Positions 7,307 to 35,563 are shown, counted from the stretch's first letter. The stretch: 44,828 nucleotides of DNA from Candidatus Azambacteria bacterium (GCA_030646675.1 JAUSKX010000006.1:1-44828); one strand, 5' to 3'. Program-made: numbers and translations. The notes: generated by a model from the sequence alone, not told the origin.

Positions 7307-7426
7307 CATGGCAACTCTGAGACCCGAGCATGTCTCTAATAAACTGCTTTTTCTTTTTTAAAATTTCTTAAATATCTTGTCGTCAAGCCGAAAATTTGAT
7401 AATATTTATTTGTAAACATCGAAAAT

Positions 7427-8131
7427 ATGAAGAATCTTCGCTTCTATTTCAATAAAAAACTTGATGCGTTAATGGTTGAGGAATTTCTTAAGGTAAGTGG
7501 AGGAGGAATAGACTTTGGTCAAAATATTTTTAAAATACATCCGCAGTTGAAATCGGTTAAATTATTAAACTTCCAACAGAGAAAAAAAACAATCAATGCT
7601 TACTTTAATAATTACTACCGAACCCATAAGGCAGTAATGCGATGCAGAATTAAGAACATACGAGACGCTTGGCCCAAGCACGAACGTGAATTTGTTGCCA
7701 TAACCGAGGATTTTTTCGGTAGTTTTCGGTTTCCCAGAGGAAAATATATTGCCTACGCTTCTATTCTTAATTGTAACCCGCGATTTTTGGACTTAAAAAC
7801 ATTCCAGTTTTTTTATGAAAAACCACTAGCCGATGCTATTTATACCATTGCTCACGAGCTTCTTCATTTTATTTTTTATGATTTTATTGAAAAGAAATTA
7901 AAAAAAGAGGTAAAACATTTATCAGAAGATCAATTATGGGACCTTTCAGAGATATTCAACGTTGTCGTTCTTGGGTCTCCGCGATACTGCCGTATTATCA
8001 ATCAAAAATTTGTGATTCCTTATCCCGATCATCGACGCTATATTAGTCAGTTTGAAAAAGCATATAAGAATTCCAAAAATGCCAAAGAATTTATTAGACG
8101 TGGCATAACTATCATAAGTGCAAAAAAATAG
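7427..8131 (+). CDS. HExxH-motif protein 2 (putative zinc metallopeptidase, same architecture as 6528-7166)
   Basis: 234 aa with motif TIAHELLHFIF. Has its own promoter-like sequence (ttgtcg...tgataat) upstream. Confidence 0.5.
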   Translation: MKNLRFYFNKKLDALMVEEFLKVSGGGIDFGQNIFKIHPQLKSVKLLNFQQRKKTINAYFNNYYRTHKAVMRCRIKNIRDAWPKHEREFVAITEDFFGSFRFPRGKYIAYASILNCNPRFLDLKTFQFFYEKPLADAIYTIAHELLHFIFYDFIEKKLKKEVKHLSEDQLWDLSEIFNVVVLGSPRYCRIINQKFVIPYPDHRRYISQFEKAYKNSKNAKEFIRRGITIISAKK

Positions 8132-8164: not shown

Positions 8165-9550
8165 CTATTTGTTTGCGGTTTGCCTTTCTTTTTGTTTTTC
8201 CCACAAGTCGCGTATTAAAAAGTGGGTTGTCGCTTTTGCGTGAACACAAAATCGCTCATCAAGAGCATAGATAGTTCCCTTTGTTCGGTAGGCGTTGTAT
8301 GGACAACCTCCGCCGCAATTACCTAGAGCGACGCAACTTCTACATACCTTGTTGGCGAGCGGCGAGCGTTTTCTCCACTGTTTCCAGAACGGATGAGATT
8401 CCGGCTCGAATGTTTCAAGTGGTTCTGTGACGAAAAACTCTTTTCTGCCGCAGAAAGCCTGACAGACGCCAATTTTGCCATCCGGACTCACCACAATCTG
8501 AAGCCCGCAACCGCCGCAGTCACTCAGCACAGGCGTTTTGTCAAGAAAATTCTTGACCCGCCGCATCATGCGATCTTCGTAGATGCCGGCCGCTCGCGCC
8601 ATTTTGAAGCTCTCAATGAGTTTTTGAGCGACAATTTCTCCATATTGAGTCTTTTCACCGCTGACGATGGGATCGACTTCATTTTCAATGAGAATGTTAA
8701 ACCCCATTCCTTTAGCTCCCAGTTCATCTGCAAGCCACCGCACGATTTCTTTCATTCGGAAAAGATTATGCCGATCGATGGTTACGCAGATGCCAGTTTT
8801 AACTCCCATCTGTTGCGCGAGCCGATATGAGCGCATTACTTCGTCGAACGTTCCTTTTCCAGAAGAGTAGACACGCATTTGGTCATGGATTTCCTTTGGT
8901 CCATCGACAGAAATCGCGACCACTACTTCAGTTGCTTTGCACTGAGTGAGAATTTCTTTATCAAGGAGAATCCCGTTCGTGTTTACTGTAATCGGGAGTT
9001 TTCCGGGAAGAAGCTTCTTTGCTTTCAATCTATCAATGTACTGGAGCACTTCAAGAAGTACTTCTTTGTTGAGAGTCGGTTCTCCACCATAAATCACGAT
9101 GTGTTGCTCGGGGTGACCTTTCGTGATGCTCCTTTTTACACAATGGGTGAAAAGGTCCAGCGCCTTAATTGCGGTTTCTTTTTTCATCAGAGAAGATTGG
9201 TAACCGTGAGGCATAGGGGCCAAGAAGTAGCAGTATCGGCAACGGATGTTGCAGGCATCGGAAAGTAGCAGATAAAGGATGTTGATTGCTGGTTCATCAA
9301 GTGCCTTCTGATATTCCCGATATAATTCATAGCCGTCGGCTCGCTCCTTAATGAGGAGTCCGAGCCCTTCCAGTTGTTCGAGTATACGCTCTGAAGTGGC
9401 GTCAGAACTGATGAACACTTGCTCCTGTTGGTATTGCTTTATAAAATCCTTTTTCAAAAACGCGACTTCCAGATTTAGGCTGTTATAGAGAGCAATATAC
9501 TCGTCATCAACGGAGATTACGTGCAAGAACGGGCTTTGTTCAAACTTCAT
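8165..9550 (-). CDS. Radical SAM/SPASM-domain peptide maturase-like enzyme 1
   Basis: CxxxCxxC cluster motif (CNIRCRYC). C-terminal SPASM-type Cys clusters (CGGCGLQIVVSPDGKIGVC...CRSCVALGNCGGGCPYN). About 100-aa N-terminal extension before the SAM motif. I prefer the ATG at 9550 (AAGGAG 9 nt upstream) over the track's TTG at 9649. Confidence 0.85.
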   Translation of the reverse strand: MKFEQSPFLHVISVDDEYIALYNSLNLEVAFLKKDFIKQYQQEQVFISSDATSERILEQLEGLGLLIKERADGYELYREYQKALDEPAINILYLLLSDACNIRCRYCYFLAPMPHGYQSSLMKKETAIKALDLFTHCVKRSITKGHPEQHIVIYGGEPTLNKEVLLEVLQYIDRLKAKKLLPGKLPITVNTNGILLDKEILTQCKATEVVVAISVDGPKEIHDQMRVYSSGKGTFDEVMRSYRLAQQMGVKTGICVTIDRHNLFRMKEIVRWLADELGAKGMGFNILIENEVDPIVSGEKTQYGEIVAQKLIESFKMARAAGIYEDRMMRRVKNFLDKTPVLSDCGGCGLQIVVSPDGKIGVCQAFCGRKEFFVTEPLETFEPESHPFWKQWRKRSPLANKVCRSCVALGNCGGGCPYNAYRTKGTIYALDERFCVHAKATTHFLIRDLWEKQKERQTANK

Positions 9551-9726
9551 GTGTCTCATCTCCTTTCGATTGTAAAAGTGCTTGATTTTGAGAAACTCGC
9601 TGGGAGTTTCTTTGGCGCCTAGGATAACATAGTTTACCAATTGGCGCAAGGATTTGGTATTGGTGTGGGCGCTGGAAGAATCGGACTTCCACTCTTCTCA
9701 AACATTTTATCCAAAGTGATTATGTT

Positions 9727-12191: not shown

Positions 12192-12255
12192 AAAAACTTT
12201 TGTGATATAGTACCCATATAAAGGTCATTATTAATCATTAATAAAATTTATTGCC

Positions 12256-12501
12256 ATGAAAAAAATAGGAAAAGTTACCCATTATTACGGCAATATCGGA
12301 GTTGCCATTATTGAGCTCTCCGCAAAATTGTCGGCGGGCGACAAAGTTAAATTCAGCGATGGGAAAAGCGAGTTTGAACAGACGATTGAATCGATGCAGA
12401 TTGAGCACAAAGATATCCCATCGGCGAAAAAAGGCGATATGATTGGCGTCAAGGTTGACGAAAAAGTCAGCGAAGGCGCGGAAGTTTCTTTGGTAGACTA
12501 A
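12256..12501 (+). CDS. Small EF-Tu domain 2-like beta-barrel protein (translation elongation factor-like)
   Basis: 81 aa (IGKVTHYYGNIGVAIIELSAKLSAGDKVKF...KGDMIGVKVDEKVSEGAEV). Confidence 0.5.
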   Translation: MKKIGKVTHYYGNIGVAIIELSAKLSAGDKVKFSDGKSEFEQTIESMQIEHKDIPSAKKGDMIGVKVDEKVSEGAEVSLVD

Positions 12502-12550
12502 TGAATTCGCGCAAATATTATATGGCGCGTTAAGAGCGCGGTTTTTGTGC

Positions 12551-12623
12551 GGTGCCCATAGTGTAGCGGTTAACACTAGAGTTTGTGGAACTCTCATCAC
12601 GGGTTCGAATCCCGTTGGGCACC
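12551..12623 (+). tRNA. tRNA-His(GUG)
   Basis: 73 nt including an encoded G-1 paired to C73. Acceptor GTGCCCA/TGGGCAC, anticodon loop TTGTGGA. Confidence 0.9.
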
Positions 12624-12697
12624 CATTTGACGAAATCAATTAATTTATGTATACCATGCACGTAGTCAGAGCATGGAAATTTAGGTGATTTTTGTTG

Positions 12698-12744
12698 GAT
12701 CTTTAACAATTTAGCCCAAAAATGCCTGAAAGGAGGGCGAAGAG
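12698..12744 (+). promoter_or_regulatory. Conserved 5' leader, copy 2 (shared with 3846-3894)
   Basis: gatctttaacaatttagcccaaaaatgcctgaaaggagggcgaagag directly before the ATG of the radical SAM gene. The 21-nt core is identical to copy 1. Confidence 0.6.
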
Positions 12745-14133
12745 ATGAAAATTAATCGAAAGATTCCATTAATTAAATCGCAATTTGTTCAAGTAATCAA
12801 AAATAATAGTAAAACCATAATCTGGCACTCGCTTTTTGGGAATCCCAAAATCGTTTCAAAAGATACTATAGCGTTGCTCAATATTTTTTCTAATTCGCGC
12901 TCTCTATCTTCTGTCCTGGGCGAATATAATATTGGAGAAAATGGCATAGAAGTCATTCAAGACTTAATTGCAAGCCACTATTTAATTCCCAAAAATTTTG
13001 ACGAGAGAAAATTTCTCGCTAAACGCATGCAAGAGCGCGAAGAGTCTATTACCAGTGGATCGCTCATTGATTATCTTGAGCTTATCATGTCTGAAGCATG
13101 TAATTTTCGTTGCATATATTGTATTCACTTCAACAATCTTGGAATAACTGACCGGATAAAAAATCCGAAGAAATTCATGACCTTTAAAATTGCGAAAGAA
13201 GCGGTAGATCAGTATCTAAAGATTTTACAACGACATGGGAAAAATGTGGCAAGTATAAACTTCGGCGGAGGCGAGCCCCTTCTCGTGTGGTCGGTAATAG
13301 AGCAAGTGATTAAATACTGTATTTCCCACTATAGTCATGATTTCGTATTTCGATTCTCAATCAACACGAACGCTTCTTTGATTACGGCTGATATTGCCAG
13401 AAAACTCAAAGAATATCGTGTGGAAATTGCGTCGAGTCTTGATGGTCTTCGTGATGGAAACAATCAAGTTCGGCTTACGAAATCCGGTGGCGGAACCTTT
13501 AGGGCCATAATGCGAGGATTTGATAATCTTGCGGAACAAGGTCACCCACTGAAAGGCATTGCCATTACAGTAAATGAAAAAAACTTCCCGTTTCTTGACG
13601 AGAAAATCATTAACTGGGCTTCTAATCGACAGATGCAAGAAGTTCGAATTGATATTGATGTTATTGGCATGGTTGAAATACCAGTCGATGATATTGTCGA
13701 GAAATTAATGAGAATACGGCAATACGCTAAAAGTCGCGAAATTGAGGTCGCCGGTTTTTGGTCCCGGCCGGCTGAAAATCTTAATGATTTGACACTGAAT
13801 ACGCATATAGCATTCTGCGGAGCGGTTCGCGGCAATAGTATATGTGTAAATCCTTCCGGTGATATATACGGATGCGGTTACAGCACTAAACAGCTTGGAA
13901 CGCTTCATCAAATTGAATCATTCTATGTTCCTGGGAGCCGATACCATCTTTTTGTGAAAGACCATCTGACTGGAGCAATTGAAATGTGTAAAGGATGTAT
14001 AATTGAAGGACAATGCGGCGGAGGATGTAATATTACACAAGAATTCGCTCGCGCAACCAAGACTGTAAAAATCAAACGAATGTGCGCTTTTTATCGTAAA
14101 ATGACGCGAAAACTTCTTCTCGAACAAATTTAA
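12745..14133 (+). CDS. Radical SAM/SPASM-domain peptide maturase-like enzyme 2 (paralog of 8165-9550)
   Basis: 462 aa with CNFRCIYC cluster motif, GGGEPLL, and C-terminal SPASM Cys clusters (CGAVRGNSICVNPSGDIYGC...CKGCIIEGQCGGGCNIT). About 118-aa N-terminal extension. Confidence 0.85.
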   Translation: MKINRKIPLIKSQFVQVIKNNSKTIIWHSLFGNPKIVSKDTIALLNIFSNSRSLSSVLGEYNIGENGIEVIQDLIASHYLIPKNFDERKFLAKRMQEREESITSGSLIDYLELIMSEACNFRCIYCIHFNNLGITDRIKNPKKFMTFKIAKEAVDQYLKILQRHGKNVASINFGGGEPLLVWSVIEQVIKYCISHYSHDFVFRFSINTNASLITADIARKLKEYRVEIASSLDGLRDGNNQVRLTKSGGGTFRAIMRGFDNLAEQGHPLKGIAITVNEKNFPFLDEKIINWASNRQMQEVRIDIDVIGMVEIPVDDIVEKLMRIRQYAKSREIEVAGFWSRPAENLNDLTLNTHIAFCGAVRGNSICVNPSGDIYGCGYSTKQLGTLHQIESFYVPGSRYHLFVKDHLTGAIEMCKGCIIEGQCGGGCNITQEFARATKTVKIKRMCAFYRKMTRKLLLEQI

Positions 14134-14145
14134 AGAAAGGAGGTA

Positions 14146-14253
14146 ATGGCTATGAAAAAGACGCGGTCTAGCAAGCAGCTGAATCTGGCAATAAAGCCCC
14201 TTCCCAAGCGGAAAGTGCTCAATACTTGCCAGGCGCCCAGCAACTGCCACTAA
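14146..14253 (+). CDS. 35-aa peptide, candidate RiPP precursor (absent from the ORF track)
   Basis: Hand translation gives MAMKKTRSSKQLNLAIKPLPKRKVLNTCQAPSNCH*. AGGAGG at 14138-14143. The second ATG at 14152 has better SD spacing and would give 33 aa. Starts 13 nt after the radical SAM stop. Confidence 0.55.
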   Translation: MAMKKTRSSKQLNLAIKPLPKRKVLNTCQAPSNCH

Positions 14254-14312
14254 CATGGTGGCTTTACAGGGCTAAGGGAAAATGTTATAATTCCTTTAGC
14301 CCTGTTTTATTT

Positions 14313-15029
14313 ATGAATAAATTTGTTCAAAAAATCTGCAGTAGTATAGTAGAACAATATAAACAAGACAAAAATGTCTTGGGGGTTATGTTGTTCGGGT
14401 CTGCGGCAAGAAATAAATTTGATCAATATTCCGACATAGATATTTATATTTTACTGAATAAAAAGGGCAAATTTTCAAGGATTAATTTTATAAAAAATGG
14501 AATACGCGTTGATATCATTTTGAATACAATAGCGGAGGCAAAGGAGTATCTCAAAAAAGATAAAAATGCATTGAAAAGAATAACCTCGCACATGATAGCT
14601 TGTGGCGTAATTCTTTTTCAGAGAAGAAAAGTTTTAAAGAAAATTCAATCTGTTGCAAAGAATAATTTGCAATTAAAAACTAAATATAAGAGTAGTGAAG
14701 TTTTGATGCACAAATATTCCATAGATGATTTTTGGGGGGAAGTTCAACGAGATGCACAAAATGAAGATTATTTAGCTTTTAATTTAGATAGTCATTTATT
14801 AGTGAATAATATTATAGAATTATTCCTTAAGTTGAATGGAAAATTCTTAAAACAACCAAATGAAATGTTTGGACTACTCAATAAGCTGGATAGTAATTTC
14901 TGTAGTATTCTAAAAAATTTTTATATAGCAAATAGCATTGATCAGAAAAAAGATATATTAGAAAAACTTGTAAATTATATTTACAAAAAATCGGGCGGCT
15001 CATTGCCTCAACGATGGAAAGTTCTTTAA
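14313..15029 (+). CDS. Nucleotidyltransferase (Pol-beta superfamily, KNTase-like with helical C-terminal domain)
   Basis: Motifs LFGSAARN...DIDIYILL (GS...DxD). I prefer the ATG at 14313. The track's upstream extension overlaps the peptide gene. Confidence 0.7.
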   Translation: MNKFVQKICSSIVEQYKQDKNVLGVMLFGSAARNKFDQYSDIDIYILLNKKGKFSRINFIKNGIRVDIILNTIAEAKEYLKKDKNALKRITSHMIACGVILFQRRKVLKKIQSVAKNNLQLKTKYKSSEVLMHKYSIDDFWGEVQRDAQNEDYLAFNLDSHLLVNNIIELFLKLNGKFLKQPNEMFGLLNKLDSNFCSILKNFYIANSIDQKKDILEKLVNYIYKKSGGSLPQRWKVL

Positions 15030-15057
15030 TATTCCGAACAAAAGGAGGTGAAGACCA

Positions 15058-15666
15058 ATGTTTGTATATGTGGGTGGCGTATCTGGAGTCGGTAAATCAA
15101 AAATTGTAACGGAGGCAGAAAAGTTAGCGCGAAAACGTGGAATTAAAATGGAATTAATTAATGGAGCAACTATTCTTTGCGGATTGACCGGTGCGACAAA
15201 TATAAGCGAATTACAAACATTGTCTGAAAATGCAAGATTAGATCTTCACGCGAAAATGAATCAAAGATTATATGAGATAGACCGTCAAGATCCGAAAACG
15301 ATTCGGGTGGCCGATGGATATTTCATGTATTTTGATGTCCCAAAAGTATCAGAATGTGGCATTAGAGAGCTCCAGCCATGGAATAAAAATCAAATTTTAG
15401 GGATAACGATACTGATTGCTGAACCACACATCATTTTACGGCGTCGCATTCAAGATATCGGAAAGCGTCCAGATAGAAAATGCGATTTGAGGTTATTAAT
15501 TCAAGAACAGTATACGGAAATTAAAGATATTTTATTGCAAGCCGCTAAGATTAATATGCGTCCTTATTTTATAAGAAATGAGGTAACAGAGGGCTCATTA
15601 GCTGCAGAGGCGCTTCTTTCATTTTGTACGCTCCAAGCATTTTGTGGAAAAATATCACGACATTGA
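15058..15666 (+). CDS. P-loop NTPase, nucleoside/nucleotide kinase-like
   Basis: Walker A at the extreme N-terminus (VGGVSGVGKSK). About 200 aa. Strong SD (AAAGGAGG) upstream. Confidence 0.6.
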   Translation: MFVYVGGVSGVGKSKIVTEAEKLARKRGIKMELINGATILCGLTGATNISELQTLSENARLDLHAKMNQRLYEIDRQDPKTIRVADGYFMYFDVPKVSECGIRELQPWNKNQILGITILIAEPHIILRRRIQDIGKRPDRKCDLRLLIQEQYTEIKDILLQAAKINMRPYFIRNEVTEGSLAAEALLSFCTLQAFCGKISRH

Positions 15667-15757
15667 TTTCACTTAAGTCTGCGATTTATTTAACATTGTA
15701 AATCGTGGGCTTTTTTTATATTATTAACCAGATGATTATTTATCTAGGAGGATAACA

Positions 15758-17044
15758 ATGAAATATCAAGTACCAAAAGGAACAAGGGATTTTCTCCCGG
15801 AAGAGATGGGATTAAGACGAGGCGTTATCAATACGCTGGTTTCAACGTACGGTATTTATGGTTTTCAAGAATGGGACGGCCCAGCTTTTGAATATCTCGA
15901 TACTTTGGTTGGCAAAAGCGGTGAGTCCATAGCGAATGAGATTTATACTTTTAAGGACAAAGGCGGTCGAAATTTGGGATTGCGTTTTGAATTGACGACT
16001 TCGCTGGCTCGTATAATCGCTGGCAATCCCCAAATTAAAAAACCTTTGCGTTTGTTCAATATTGGGAAAGTTTGGCGGTATGAGCAACCACAGGCTGGGC
16101 GTTTCAGAGAATTTCTGCAAGCGGATACGGATATTTTCGGTTCAGCAAGCATGCTTTGTGAAGTTGAATTGCTTACTATGGCGGCGGCGGCTTTAAAAAA
16201 GCTCAAAGTTGCCGATAGCGTTATCTTGCTTAATAATCGCAAAATACTTGAAGCCCAGCTAAAAAGTGTGGGCATTGAGGACGATTTCAAAGCCGGGGCG
16301 CTTCGGTCACTTGATAAATTGGCGAAAGTTGGGATTGAGGGAGTGAGGCGTGAATTTGAATCTCAAAATATCCCAAAAGAACAGTTCGAAGAACTGATGA
16401 AGCAGATTAATATCAATGGTGACAATCAATTCAAGCTTGATCAAGTTAGTCAATTTCTGGCCAATGATAAAGTTGGGGTTGAAGGCATCGAGGAGTTGCG
16501 TCAAATTATCAGCCTTCTTGCTGAAAACGGTTTGGATACGCCTATTCAAATTGATTTCAGCCTGGTGCGCGGCCTTGACTACTACACGGGGCCGATTTAT
16601 GAAATTAGGTCTATCGATCAAAAAGAATTAGGCAGTTTTGCGGGCGGTGGCCGATATGACCAATTAATACAGACATTAGGCGGTCAAGCGACATCGGCAG
16701 CGGGGATTTCTTTTGGGATTGAAAGGTTGATTGAGATAATCAAAAAACGAGAGGGATATTCCGATATTATATCTCCTGTGGAGGTTTTTATCGGTTATCC
16801 GAATCAAAGTGCATTGCCGATTGCGCTTAATGCCGCGAAAATGTTCAGAGAAGCTGGTATCACAACCGAAATTGATTTAACCGGACGCAATTTAGGAAAA
16901 CAGCTTGCCTATGCCAGCGCGATTAACGCCAAATATAGTTTCATTGTTTTTTCTGCCGAGGAGCAAAAACTCAAAGAAATGGCGACGCAAAAAGAAGAAA
17001 CAATGAGCGTGTCGTCAGCGATTTCCAGAATTACTTCCAAGTAA
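15758..17044 (+). CDS. hisS: Histidine--tRNA ligase
   Basis: 428 aa with KGTRDFLPEE, class II motif 2 region (WRYEQPQAGRFREF) and GGGRYD. Confidence 0.93.
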   Translation: MKYQVPKGTRDFLPEEMGLRRGVINTLVSTYGIYGFQEWDGPAFEYLDTLVGKSGESIANEIYTFKDKGGRNLGLRFELTTSLARIIAGNPQIKKPLRLFNIGKVWRYEQPQAGRFREFLQADTDIFGSASMLCEVELLTMAAAALKKLKVADSVILLNNRKILEAQLKSVGIEDDFKAGALRSLDKLAKVGIEGVRREFESQNIPKEQFEELMKQININGDNQFKLDQVSQFLANDKVGVEGIEELRQIISLLAENGLDTPIQIDFSLVRGLDYYTGPIYEIRSIDQKELGSFAGGGRYDQLIQTLGGQATSAAGISFGIERLIEIIKKREGYSDIISPVEVFIGYPNQSALPIALNAAKMFREAGITTEIDLTGRNLGKQLAYASAINAKYSFIVFSAEEQKLKEMATQKEETMSVSSAISRITSK

Positions 17045-17081
17045 CGCATAGTGCTAGCAATTGCCACTAGAGTGGCTTCAC

Positions 17082-17129
17082 GGGGTTGAGAAAAGGTTAT
17101 ATACTATTCTCAACCCCGTTTTATTTTTT
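17082..17129 (+). terminator. Rho-independent terminator after hisS
   Basis: Stem ggggttgagaa / ttctcaacccc, followed by gttttatttttt. Confidence 0.75.
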
Positions 17130-17458
17130 ATGAAAAAAATTTCATTTTTATTATAGAGCTAGATCGAAATGCGATTGGTCATGTCTCTTTAGTGAAAAGA
17201 AAAAACGGTTGGTATGAAACCCAAATTATTATAGGCGAAAAGAAATATTGGAATAAAAACTACGGGACAAAAGCCATTCAACTGCTTATTAAAAAAGCAA
17301 AAAAGCTTGGAATTTTAAAAATTTATTTAGAAGTTAGGCCGAATAATCTTAGGGCAATTGCAACTTATGAAAAATGCGGATTTAAAAAATCAAGAATTAA
17401 AAAATATCCTAAGAATAAATATCTGCCAGAAACACTAAGAATGGAACTAAAAAAATAA
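17130..17458 (+). pseudogene. GNAT N-acetyltransferase remnant (N-terminally truncated and frameshifted)
   Basis: A GNAT core (IGHVSL...GEKKYWNKNYGTKAIQLLIKKAKKLG...ATYEKCGF) is open from 17192. The ATG at 17130 is one frame off and stops after 8 codons. An A7 run (17133-17139) separates the frames. The expected N-terminal beta1-alpha1-alpha2 region is missing. Confidence 0.55.
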
Positions 17459-17487
17459 AACGGCTTCACCCTTTAACGACTCGCATG

Positions 17488-18045
17488 TTATTCAATTAGT
17501 GTTTTTTCGCCTTCTTTTATTAAAATTGCCTGAGAATTGGTTAACCTCTCAATTTTAACATTATTTTTACTTTCAAATAATTTAATTTCTTCCTCAAATT
17601 CAGAGGAATAATGAGGAAAAACAATTAAATCTATGATATTAAAACCATTAAAGTCAGTAAGGCCAACTTCATTTATATCGGGATGAATTTCATTTGCTAT
17701 TTGAATTGAGGGGCCTATTATAAGACTGCCCGCGCTGACTCCGATATATATGCCATCTCTCTTTAATAATGACTCTACTTCATTATCAAAATTCATTTCT
17801 CTGGCGAATTTCATTAGTTTGAAAGTATTACCTCCGCAAACATATATAACATCATATTGGGAAAGGTCTTTTAGTCCTTCATTTTCAAAATCATAAAAAT
17901 CAAGAATATCAAAACCAGCTGATTTTAATTGAGATAAAGCTAATTGAGAATATTGATTATTTTCTTTATCGGAAGAAGCCGTAGTGATAATTACTACTTT
18001 CTTAAAACCTTTTGAATCAGCAATTTCCTTAAACTTGTCATACAC
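17488..18045 (-). CDS. Peptidase S51 (dipeptidase E-like)
   Basis: 185 aa with the pattern YVCGGNTFKLM...IYIGVSAGSLI, typical of the S51/PepE family. Confidence 0.7.
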   Translation of the reverse strand: MYDKFKEIADSKGFKKVVIITTASSDKENNQYSQLALSQLKSAGFDILDFYDFENEGLKDLSQYDVIYVCGGNTFKLMKFAREMNFDNEVESLLKRDGIYIGVSAGSLIIGPSIQIANEIHPDINEVGLTDFNGFNIIDLIVFPHYSSEFEEEIKLFESKNNVKIERLTNSQAILIKEGEKTLIE

Positions 18046-35484: not shown

Positions 35485-35558
35485 GCGAGTGTAGCTCAAT
35501 TGGTTAGAGCATCGAGCTTATACCTCGGGGGTTCCAGGTTCGAGTCCTGGCACTCGCA
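35485..35558 (+). tRNA. tRNA with anticodon UAU (tRNA-Ile(UAU) by anticodon)
   Basis: 74-nt cloverleaf with acceptor GCGAGTG/CACTCGC, D-arm GCTC/GAGC and anticodon stem TCGAG/CTCGG. Loop is CTTATAC with U33 and A37. T-arm CCAGGTTCGAGTCCTGG. Confidence 0.75.
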
Positions 35559-35563
35559 CAGGC

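Follow-up and report, generated by a model that had tools for sequence, protein, structure and literature searches.

A stretch of 44,828 nt from Candidatus Azambacteria bacterium (GCA_030646675.1 JAUSKX010000006.1:1-44828; the window below is this whole stretch) encodes a radical S-adenosylmethionine (rSAM) enzyme with a SPASM region, followed by a short peptide gene, a hairpin, a nucleotidyltransferase (NTase) gene and a P-loop kinase gene. We found that the rSAM enzyme and the peptide almost certainly form a conserved pair and that the position behind the hairpin, hereafter the slot, is filled by exchangeable transferases. Tentatively, we favour the interpretation that these parts make up a conserved three-part module, restricted to the Candidate Phyla Radiation (CPR, or Patescibacteria) and resembling the pathways for peptides made on the ribosome and modified after translation (RiPPs), and that the slot enzyme neutralises the product inside the cell. 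The observations behind this interpretation concern gene content, conservation and co-localisation, covariation in the hairpin, protein folds and the scars of past exchanges. A preliminary description of this DNA had named the main features of the region, and all of them, with their coordinates and translations, are present in the sequence (Table 1).

Orthologous loci were fetched from species-representative genomes (36 loci, L001-L036) and from metagenomes (80 loci), two collections in which more than 300 and more than 430 matches were confirmed and the top 80 loci of each were given. Redundancy filtering removed exact duplicates only, and the locus counts include close relatives. The peptide was scored in 89 non-redundant loci with enough sequence downstream of the rSAM gene, which belong to Parcubacteria-type lineages, Saccharibacteria and Peregrinibacteria; to score which gene comes first behind the hairpin, 75 non-redundant loci were used that extend 900 nt or more downstream.

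A small open reading frame (ORF) lies directly 3' of the rSAM gene in 86 of the 89 loci, behind a GGAGG-type Shine-Dalgarno (SD) sequence, and its product ends in C-x-x-(P)-(S/T)-N-C followed by 1-3 residues. The window peptide combines a basic leader containing LPKRKVL with the core TCQAPSNCH. The recurrence of the ORF and its invariant core bear out the proposal of the preliminary description that the peptide gene is genuine and encodes the candidate cognate substrate of the rSAM/SPASM enzyme; the ORF is not one that vanishes from homologous loci while the enzymes persist. Of the two possible start codons, the ATG at 14152 had been thought better spaced than that at 14146, and we agree: it sits 8 nt after GGAGG, and a GGAGG-type motif stands 6-9 nt ahead of the peptide ATG in nearly all of 33 loci examined. 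Homologs start with MKK or MQK, matching the ATG at 14152, so the window peptide most likely has 33 residues. Codon-by-codon analysis of the same number of loci (33) found the Thr at position -9 in 32 of them and the residues C, P, S, N and C invariant. The core codons vary, with four codons used for Pro and two each for Cys, Ser and Asn. Invariant residues with synonymous codon variation indicate that it is the protein and not the DNA that is under selection. The DNA motif is expected by chance 0.01 times in the window.

Leaders differ between lineages, reading ..(V/I)K(P/A/S)LPK(R/L)KVL(N/C)TC.. in the Parcubacteria type and ..K(M)P(V/A)x(S/A)MTC.. in Saccharibacteria. The residues after the last Cys vary as well: H in 66 cases, G in 7, K in 3, RH in 3 and SKS in 2, besides T, R, S, HKS and HKN. 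We had considered a microcin-C-like link between a C-terminal His, tRNA-His and hisS, and rejected it because the terminal residue varies and because, outside the clade of the window, the module is not flanked by tRNA-His and hisS. The peptide is lost or altered in three loci (L106, L128 and L025). In L025 a different small ORF (7418-7552) follows the most divergent ortholog (48% identity) and ends in ..VCDQYGSSCNGC, without the SNC motif; two genes without a Pfam match stand there in place of the transferase.

The maturase matches PF04055. Its rSAM motif CX3CX2C (C119/C123/C126) is invariant in 23 sequences, as are eight Cys of the SPASM region (C358, C367, C377, C415, C418, C424, C428 and C447). 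Many NCBIfam families of SPASM peptide maturases also match, every one of them below its cut-off. Homologs fall into 423 clusters, of which the best 120 (62-85% identity) all come from Patescibacteria/CPR, including Parcubacteria groups, Uhrbacteria, Magasanikbacteria, Brennerbacteria and Peregrinibacteria. Among solved structures the nearest is that of TigE (8VPO), which synthesizes methyl-cyclopropylglycine, with an alignment over the full length (E-value 5e-35 with a single sequence, 9e-49 with a profile). In this sequence alignment residues 8 to ~90 of the maturase pair with TigE residues 6 to ~88, the stretch that makes up the RiPP recognition element (RRE) of TigE (given as residues 3-85). 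At the position of the TigE signature the maturase reads GFW, with G337 and W339 invariant and F338 nearly so. The Tyr of the TigE signature GYW ligates the auxiliary cluster Aux I and is essential, the Y339F variant being inactive (PMC10878394). Having GFW in place of GYW, the maturase is a relative of the cyclopropyl synthases and not a member of that group, and its reaction is not readable from the sequence. From the Tyr to Phe change we first deduced an open Aux I site like that of CteB, implying a thioether; this was withdrawn, since the invariant C367 could complete the ligation.

Comparison with characterised maturases sharpens these differences. TigE and TvgB share the layout of the module, with a short precursor beside the enzyme, and the alignment to TigE spans RRE, rSAM core and SPASM. 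However, these enzymes (RadicalSAM.org cluster 1-1-201:AS65) need GYW, whereas the module enzyme has GFW and the extra invariant C367, and their precursors carry repeated Val/Ile motifs, whereas the module has a single, non-repeated TCxxPSNC core without invariant Val or Ile. The ranthipeptide maturase PapB (NF047865) is the best NCBIfam match, but it scores 138.4 bits against a cut-off of 340, and the core lacks CxxxD/E. CteB (5WGG), which acts in the SCIFF system (TIGR03974), is the second solved relative, but the family score is 81.3 against 425 bits, and the core has two Cys, not six. It is reasonable to infer from these sequences that the core TCxxPSNC is what the maturase modifies. The modification would most likely be an intramolecular crosslink or an oxidation involving the two Cys; a thioether product, by analogy with PapB and CteB and given the Cys in the core, is plausible.

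Nearly every locus has a stable hairpin with a T-run 10-30 nt past the peptide stop, which in the window has a free energy of -23.8 kcal/mol (z -5.4). Compensatory changes occur in 7 of 10 stem pairs among 21 Parcubacteria-type copies. The loop is conserved in sequence, with TA..T invariant, which is unusual for a terminator; together with its 5' flank it reads TT(C/T)AC(G/A), 17 nt, TG-n-TA-n-A-n-T. The corresponding promoter-like site of the window (TTTACA, 17 nt, TGTTATAAT; 14263-14291) agrees with the consensus at 11 of 12 positions, has an extended -10 element and scores best in the 5.4 kb from 12200 to 17600. In Saccharibacteria the register differs, TTTACG lying in the hairpin loop and TATAAT past the T-run, 6-10 nt before the next ATG. 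The NTase ATG follows the T-run directly, without an SD sequence. We infer from these motifs that the hairpin may be a terminator doubling as the promoter of the next gene. A strong terminator with an embedded promoter between peptide and NTase makes it unlikely that one transcript from the leader through 15666, as envisaged in the preliminary description, is the main product. A search for RNA families in the hairpin region returned no known family beyond tRNA.

The first gene after the hairpin encodes an NTase in 36 of the 75 loci (followed by the kinase in 3), a GNAT acetyltransferase of ~160 aa (PF13302/PF00583) in 28 and a class-I S-adenosylmethionine-dependent methyltransferase (MTase) of ~211 aa, usually followed by a GNAT, in 5; none of these families takes the position in the remaining 6. 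One of the three thus lies within a few hundred nt of the hairpin in 69 of the 75 loci. Among the exceptions, L094 and L120 have a convergent major facilitator superfamily (MFS) transporter and an MTase of a second type, and L167 has the second-type MTase only. The second-type MTase has 268 aa, and the convergent MFS gene stands right after the peptide terminator in loci without NTase or GNAT. The defining partnership is therefore that of rSAM enzyme, peptide and an interchangeable transferase (NTase, GNAT or MTase) rather than one with NTase and kinase, as had been assumed before.

Exchange in the slot is apparent at several levels. Slot types are interleaved among close rSAM relatives of the window, L001 (84% identical) having NTase and kinase and L002 (85%) a GNAT. 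An identical leader end and core, LPKLKVLCTCQRPSNCH, pairs with an NTase, with a GNAT and with a combination of MTase and GNAT (such combinations are found in L101 and L111), which means that chemically different enzymes serve an identical peptide. Fragments of former occupants remain: C-terminal parts of an NTase downstream of a GNAT (L006, L017, L098, L100 and L116), parts of a GNAT downstream of NTase and kinase (L014 and the window) and a truncated MTase start downstream of the occupant in L005. In 59 of 62 loci the G+C content of the slot gene falls 10-12 points short of that of the rSAM gene beside it. In the window it is 28% for the NTase and 27.6% for a GNAT remnant described below, against 38.9% for the rSAM gene, 51.9% for the peptide, 37.6% for the kinase and 42.8% for hisS, with a mean over window genes of 42.4% (standard deviation 6.3). 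The AT-rich block noted previously thus holds for the NTase and the GNAT remnant but not for the rSAM gene, the peptide, the kinase or hisS.

The NTase is predicted with high confidence (AlphaFold2 model, pLDDT 93.9) as a Pol-beta domain with a helical C-domain. Foldseek places the aminoglycoside nucleotidyltransferase ANT(4') first (TM 0.62-0.67 to 1KNY, 6P06 and 4EBJ; E-value ~1e-8), followed by 3c18, HalB and LinB, and G29, S30, D41 and D43 of the GS...DxD motif are invariant. The two-domain fold and this motif are shared with ANT(4')/KNTase, but the NF033061 score is 21 against 350 bits. MntA of the MNT-HEPN systems scores 28 against 60 bits, with no HEPN partner in the window or the loci, and HalB of the Hailong system scores 18.6 against 190 bits (TM 0.35-0.45), with no HalA partner there. 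A separate unit of the toxin-antitoxin type, one alternative considered at the outset for NTase and kinase, does not fit the NTase, which lacks a HEPN or HalA partner and is linked to the module; the kinase is unlinked elsewhere.

The NTase family comprises ~210 homolog clusters; among the 120 listed, the ~20 with a named source are all CPR, and many matches share contigs with rSAM matches. Where members were checked on long contigs, the rSAM-peptide pair precedes them, L171/L172 being the exception. Saccharibacteria NTases are only ~30% identical yet occupy the same position. The earlier assignment as a Pol-beta enzyme with a helical C-domain thus stands and its linkage extends from Saccharibacteria to Parcubacteria, but NTase and kinase are not a defining pair. 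L171/L172 have lost the rSAM gene together with the leader half of the peptide and keep the remnant 'MLCTCQRPSNCH-stop', the hairpin and an intact NTase; as the orphan retains this remnant, it derives from a complete module. Upstream of the orphan region (L171 3880-4720, likewise in L172) lie a tRNA-like gene and the gene of a CCA-adding enzyme. The closest relatives of the slot GNAT are streptothricin acetyltransferase, the aminoglycoside acetyltransferase AAC(6') and RimI, and the slot MTase gives weak matches to the daptide and mycofactocin MTase families.

Across the examined loci, the module has neither a protease nor a transporter as a conserved companion. As candidates for a conserved protease we rejected a C39-like peptidase, found in one contig only, and orf11277 (M14/AstE-like), which is not conserved beside the module. 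The former is a C39/C70-like peptidase gene (L086 3493-4419) two genes upstream of the module in the closest relative of the window and in no other locus. No module orthologs were found on viral contigs in IMG/VR, and with zero orthologs there a phage-borne module was dismissed. An anti-phage system was discarded as well, PADLOC giving only generic viperin-core and NTase-domain matches.

The surroundings of the module in the window record part of its history. According to the preliminary description, the block had been inserted as a unit between tRNA-His and hisS; the synteny comparison contradicts this, because the flanks are lineage-specific and the scar brackets NTase, kinase and hisS (14254 to ~17055). 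A tRNA-His gene upstream of the module is present only in the window and its closest relative, hisS is found near the module in none of the 36 genome loci L001-L036, and among all fetched loci only the closest relative of the window (L087) has hisS after the kinase. The scar begins 11 nt past the hisS stop with AGCAATTGCCACTAG, a 15-mer with exactly two copies in the window and none in shuffled sequences, and continues with a second hairpin (-32.4 kcal/mol, z -7.0) and a GNAT start. It aligns base for base with the region behind the peptide in L002, whose rSAM gene is 85% identical. Compared with the intact 173-aa GNAT gene of L002, the window copy has a 154-nt internal deletion, a frameshift and an 88-codon C-terminal ORF (17192-17458). 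L014, another Azambacteria locus, has a hairpin after the peptide and an NTase that nearly match those of the window, with 87% identity for the NTase against 62% for the rSAM enzyme. This disparity, the scar and the decayed GNAT indicate that the cassette was acquired and the resident GNAT displaced. Recombination at the 3' end of the peptide gene and the hairpin may have placed an NTase-kinase cassette of the type of another lineage in the promoter-proximal position; the displaced GNAT has since decayed. The position of hisS inside the duplicated junctions is not accounted for by this history.

The kinase, a homolog of nucleotide kinases, is accessory and does not define the module; it accompanies the NTase in one small clade, made up of the window, L001/L086-88 and L014. 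Its homologs form only 13 clusters, and it is present in 3 of the 75 loci. The AlphaFold2 model (pLDDT 78.9) resembles archaeal adenylate kinases in Foldseek (TM up to 0.78, 1NKS), and in the Walker A sequence GGVSGVGKS the pattern GxxGxGK is invariant; the PRK04040 match reaches 24 bits against a cut-off of 155. The gene has its own SD sequence and is probably co-transcribed with the NTase. It shares fold and Walker A with the archaeal adenylate kinases 1NKS and 6LN3, but its link to the module is confined to the small clade. Homologs at 50-54% identity (L081, L083-L085) adjoin CYTH, QueC and thymidylate-synthase-like genes, not rSAM or NTase genes, and these neighbourhoods suggest a role in nucleotide metabolism. 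Given its few clusters and loci, its unrelated contexts elsewhere and its adenylate-kinase fold, we therefore rejected a core role and a peptide-kinase activity for it; nothing points to phosphorylation of the peptide, and the fold is that of an archaeal adenylate (nucleoside monophosphate, NMP) kinase.

How the parts may work together can be put as follows. The predicted N-terminal RRE of the maturase would, by homology, bind the leader ending in ..LPK(R/L)KVL.., and the enzyme would modify the invariant C-terminal core, the site and type of modification being those proposed above. The two-gene operon of rSAM enzyme and peptide presumably stops at the intrinsic terminator, and a putative promoter formed by hairpin loop and flank would drive the slot gene separately. 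The slot transferase would then inactivate the mature product covalently within the producer cell, acting on the peptide itself or on a form processed from it; the kinase would have arrived with the NTase cassette and would not be required. A functional tie between slot enzyme and peptide is likely, and a specifically protective role is a more tentative proposition, with somewhat less than an even chance in our estimate. Among the functions offered in the preliminary description, immunity is thus the one we favour, at this same tentative level, while modification of the peptide as tailoring, though rather unlikely, remains its main rival.

We favour protection because slot enzymes of interchangeable chemistry go with an identical peptide, because the slot genes are probably expressed separately and efflux pumps occur in the same neighbourhood, and because the slot enzymes resemble antibiotic-modifying enzymes and the NTase persists as an orphan in L171. 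ANT, AAC and MccE-type enzymes neutralise antibiotics by covalent modification. Self-protection by covalent modification of the product would be the logic shared with MccE/RimL GNAT immunity and with ANT/AAC enzymes; however, the module lacks an MccB-type adenylating enzyme, identity to the resistance enzymes is 10-15%, and the substrate would be a peptide. The intact NTase left after rSAM loss in L171/L172 is an orphan-immunity pattern.

Several points weigh against protection or against the CPR restriction. Antagonistic peptides do not usually have a core that stays invariant across phyla, a pattern more typical of peptide-derived cofactors such as pyrroloquinoline quinone (PQQ) and mycofactocin. 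To our knowledge, ANT-type enzymes act on small molecules and not on peptides. The orphan NTase counts only once, as L171 and L172 are two assemblies of one locus, and promoter scores over all loci are modestly above those of shuffled sequences (8.4 versus 7.7 of 12). Some labels of metagenome-assembled genomes (MAGs), namely Gammaproteobacteria, Anaerolineales and Oscillospiraceae, contradict a restriction to CPR; these contigs are short or binned, and the labels probably reflect mis-binning. Finally, inactivation and tailoring would both fit the present data.

If the slot enzymes were tailoring enzymes, they would decorate the peptide after the rSAM step, placing an NMP on a Thr or Ser hydroxyl, an acetyl group on an amine or a methyl group. 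Lineages would make differently decorated versions of one scaffold, and the kinase of the window would provide or regenerate nucleotides. Transferases of acetyl, methyl and phosphate groups are known among RiPP tailoring enzymes. The persistent adjacency of slot enzymes to the pair (69 of 75 loci) is expected under tailoring, the invariant Thr and Ser of the core could accept nucleotide or phosphate, the MTase-GNAT combinations of L101 and L111 resemble stepwise decoration, and the slot MTase weakly matches the two MTase families named above. Tailoring sits less well with the pairing of identical peptides with chemically unrelated transferases, and with a slot gene that lacks an SD sequence, has a putative promoter of its own and follows a strong terminator. 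Displaced slot genes decay instead of accumulating, an intact orphan NTase survives rSAM loss, the slot genes are compositionally foreign, and 6 loci have no NTase, GNAT or 211-aa MTase, though 3 of them carry the second MTase type. We consider tailoring rather unlikely on balance.

Quite unlikely, in our judgement, is that the slot genes are unrelated cargo, with the hairpin serving as a hot spot of recombination and expression that collects ordinary resistance or detoxification cassettes (NTase, GNAT, MTase and MFS genes) against external compounds such as aminoglycoside-like antibiotics. The anomalously low G+C of these genes, their exchange between lineages (87% versus 62% identity of NTase and rSAM enzyme to L014), the remnants and duplicated junctions, folds typical of classical antibiotic-modifying enzymes and an NTase without an rSAM gene in L171 would all be in keeping with cargo. 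A neutral hot spot should gather more diversity, however, than the few families that recur at this one position in more than 70 loci of very distant lineages. Moreover, all NTase-family members with a named source are CPR, many sharing contigs with rSAM matches, and the L171 orphan keeps a remnant of the peptide.

The mature product might instead be a cofactor or intracellular factor, either PQQ- or mycofactocin-like or a basic, crosslinked peptide whose Cys and His bind nucleic acid or metal, with slot enzymes that regulate this molecule or act elsewhere. An invariant core with a conserved leader is the conservation pattern of cofactor precursors. The mycofactocin (MftA/B/C) and PQQ (PqqA/D/E) systems pair a short precursor having an invariant C-terminal core with an RRE-dependent rSAM/SPASM enzyme and are widely conserved. 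In the module, likewise, core and leader are conserved across phyla, the rSAM enzymes of different lineages are 62-85% identical, no conserved protease, exporter or immunity-type membrane protein is present at the loci, and strongly reduced genomes retain the module. However, the match to the mycofactocin family TIGR03962 is weak and far below cut-off, and the loci lack MftD/E/F- or PqqB/C-type partners, a peptidase and dependent oxidoreductases nearby, and likewise any conserved neighbour that could use a cofactor. The family is patchy within CPR, with hundreds of loci but not in all genomes, losses occur, and MFS pumps adjoin the module in two loci. The swap of chemically different transferases also fits poorly with a single product structure, and we regard a cofactor as very doubtful.

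That the small ORF is a regulatory leader, whose translation controls the hairpin and hence a resistance-type gene without being an rSAM substrate, is highly improbable: a short ORF, a hairpin 12-30 nt past its stop and an SD-less resistance-like gene do resemble translational attenuation units, but it is the amino-acid sequence of the C-terminal motif that is under selection, the ORF goes strictly with an rSAM/SPASM enzyme that has a predicted RRE and is present where the slot gene is absent, and the hairpin lies past the ORF without overlap.

Pairs of a precursor and an rSAM/SPASM maturase are a known kind of system; we found no description of this family, of its motif and confinement to CPR, or of a terminator/promoter slot in which transferases alternate. 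In the literature searchable without subscription we found neither a matching RiPP class, in line with the preliminary description, nor, in work on CPR, Patescibacteria and Saccharibacteria, a description of this rSAM-peptide family. CPR/Patescibacteria are usually reported with almost no biosynthetic gene clusters (one survey reports zero in its Patescibacteria MAGs), and their dealings with hosts and competitors are largely obscure. A pair that strongly reduced genomes retain, among them those of Saccharibacteria associated with humans and animals, offers a handle of three small, clonable genes. For RiPP enzymology it provides a SPASM enzyme related to TigE with an altered cluster-ligand signature and an unusual substrate, and for genome evolution a terminator that may double as a promoter, behind which nucleotidyl-, acetyl- and methyltransferases swap, leaving decaying predecessors. 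One may speculate, although we hold it to be unlikely, that this is the first broadly conserved natural product of CPR, an invariant crosslinked peptide common to lineages from Saccharibacteria to Parcubacteria and acting on the host or on competing episymbionts. Self-resistance would then be swappable between lineages and expressed from the promoter within the operon terminator, and the rSAM enzyme, as a TigE relative with a replaced Tyr ligand, would have an undescribed chemistry.

Table 1. Features of the module and its surroundings in the window, and regions of selected orthologous loci (locus named with the position)
Feature	Position	Strand	Basis or remark
tRNA-His(GUG)	12552-12624		
rSAM/SPASM peptide maturase gene, 462 aa	12745-14133	+	PF04055, TigE-like
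Shine-Dalgarno sequence AAGGAGG of the peptide gene	14137-14143	+	direct sequence reading
Precursor peptide MKKTRSSKQLNLAIKPLPKRKVLNTCQAPSNCH, 33 aa	14152-14253	+	35 aa if ATG 14146; kept in 86/89 loci
Terminator hairpin with near-consensus promoter	14263-14312	+	stem 14266-14305, T-run 14305-14312
Slot gene: Pol-beta NTase, ANT(4')/KNTase type, 238 aa	14313-15029	+	PF18765/PF01909, Foldseek
Accessory P-loop NMP kinase, archaeal adenylate-kinase type, 202 aa	15058-15666	+	Foldseek, weak PRK04040
Terminator-like hairpin and T-run after the kinase gene	15675-15720	+	-24.5 kcal/mol for 15667-15757, z -5.3
hisS, 428 aa	15758-17044	+	outside the system, inside the bracketed segment
Scar: second peptide 3' end AGCAATTGCCACTAG (SNCH-stop, 17056-17070), hairpin 17080-17119 and T-run	17056-17129	+	
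Decayed slot gene: GNAT acetyltransferase pseudogene	17130-17458	+	alignment to the intact L002 gene
MFS / second-type MTase region	L094 1762-2946	-	
MFS / second-type MTase region	L120 5573-6757	-	
MFS / second-type MTase region	L120 6865-7671	+	
MFS / second-type MTase region	L167 793-1599	-	
MFS / second-type MTase region	L013 8333-9079	-	

The window contains another rSAM/SPASM gene (8165-9649, minus strand), of which the gene treated here had been called a second paralog. That label does not hold, as the two are only ~27% identical and belong to different families. The first gene is FibroRumin-like (TIGR04136, 289 bits against a cut-off of 400) and probably starts at an ATG near 9547, behind AAAGGAG. 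Next to it, orf7427 (7427-8131, plus strand) encodes 234 aa with a HELLH zincin-like motif and a weak PF11667 match, and the pairing of the two genes recurs in L014, L022 and L024. A conserved peptide for the first rSAM gene was sought and rejected, as the upstream small ORFs differ between loci. The Azambacteria contig L014 (591-10585) has four rSAM genes in 10 kb, including homologs of both window rSAM genes, together with a homolog of orf7427. The window carries 17 tRNA genes in its 44.8 kb, and ARAGORN assigns the one at 35485-35559 to tRNA-Ile with the anticodon UAU, an uncommon bacterial way to read AUA.

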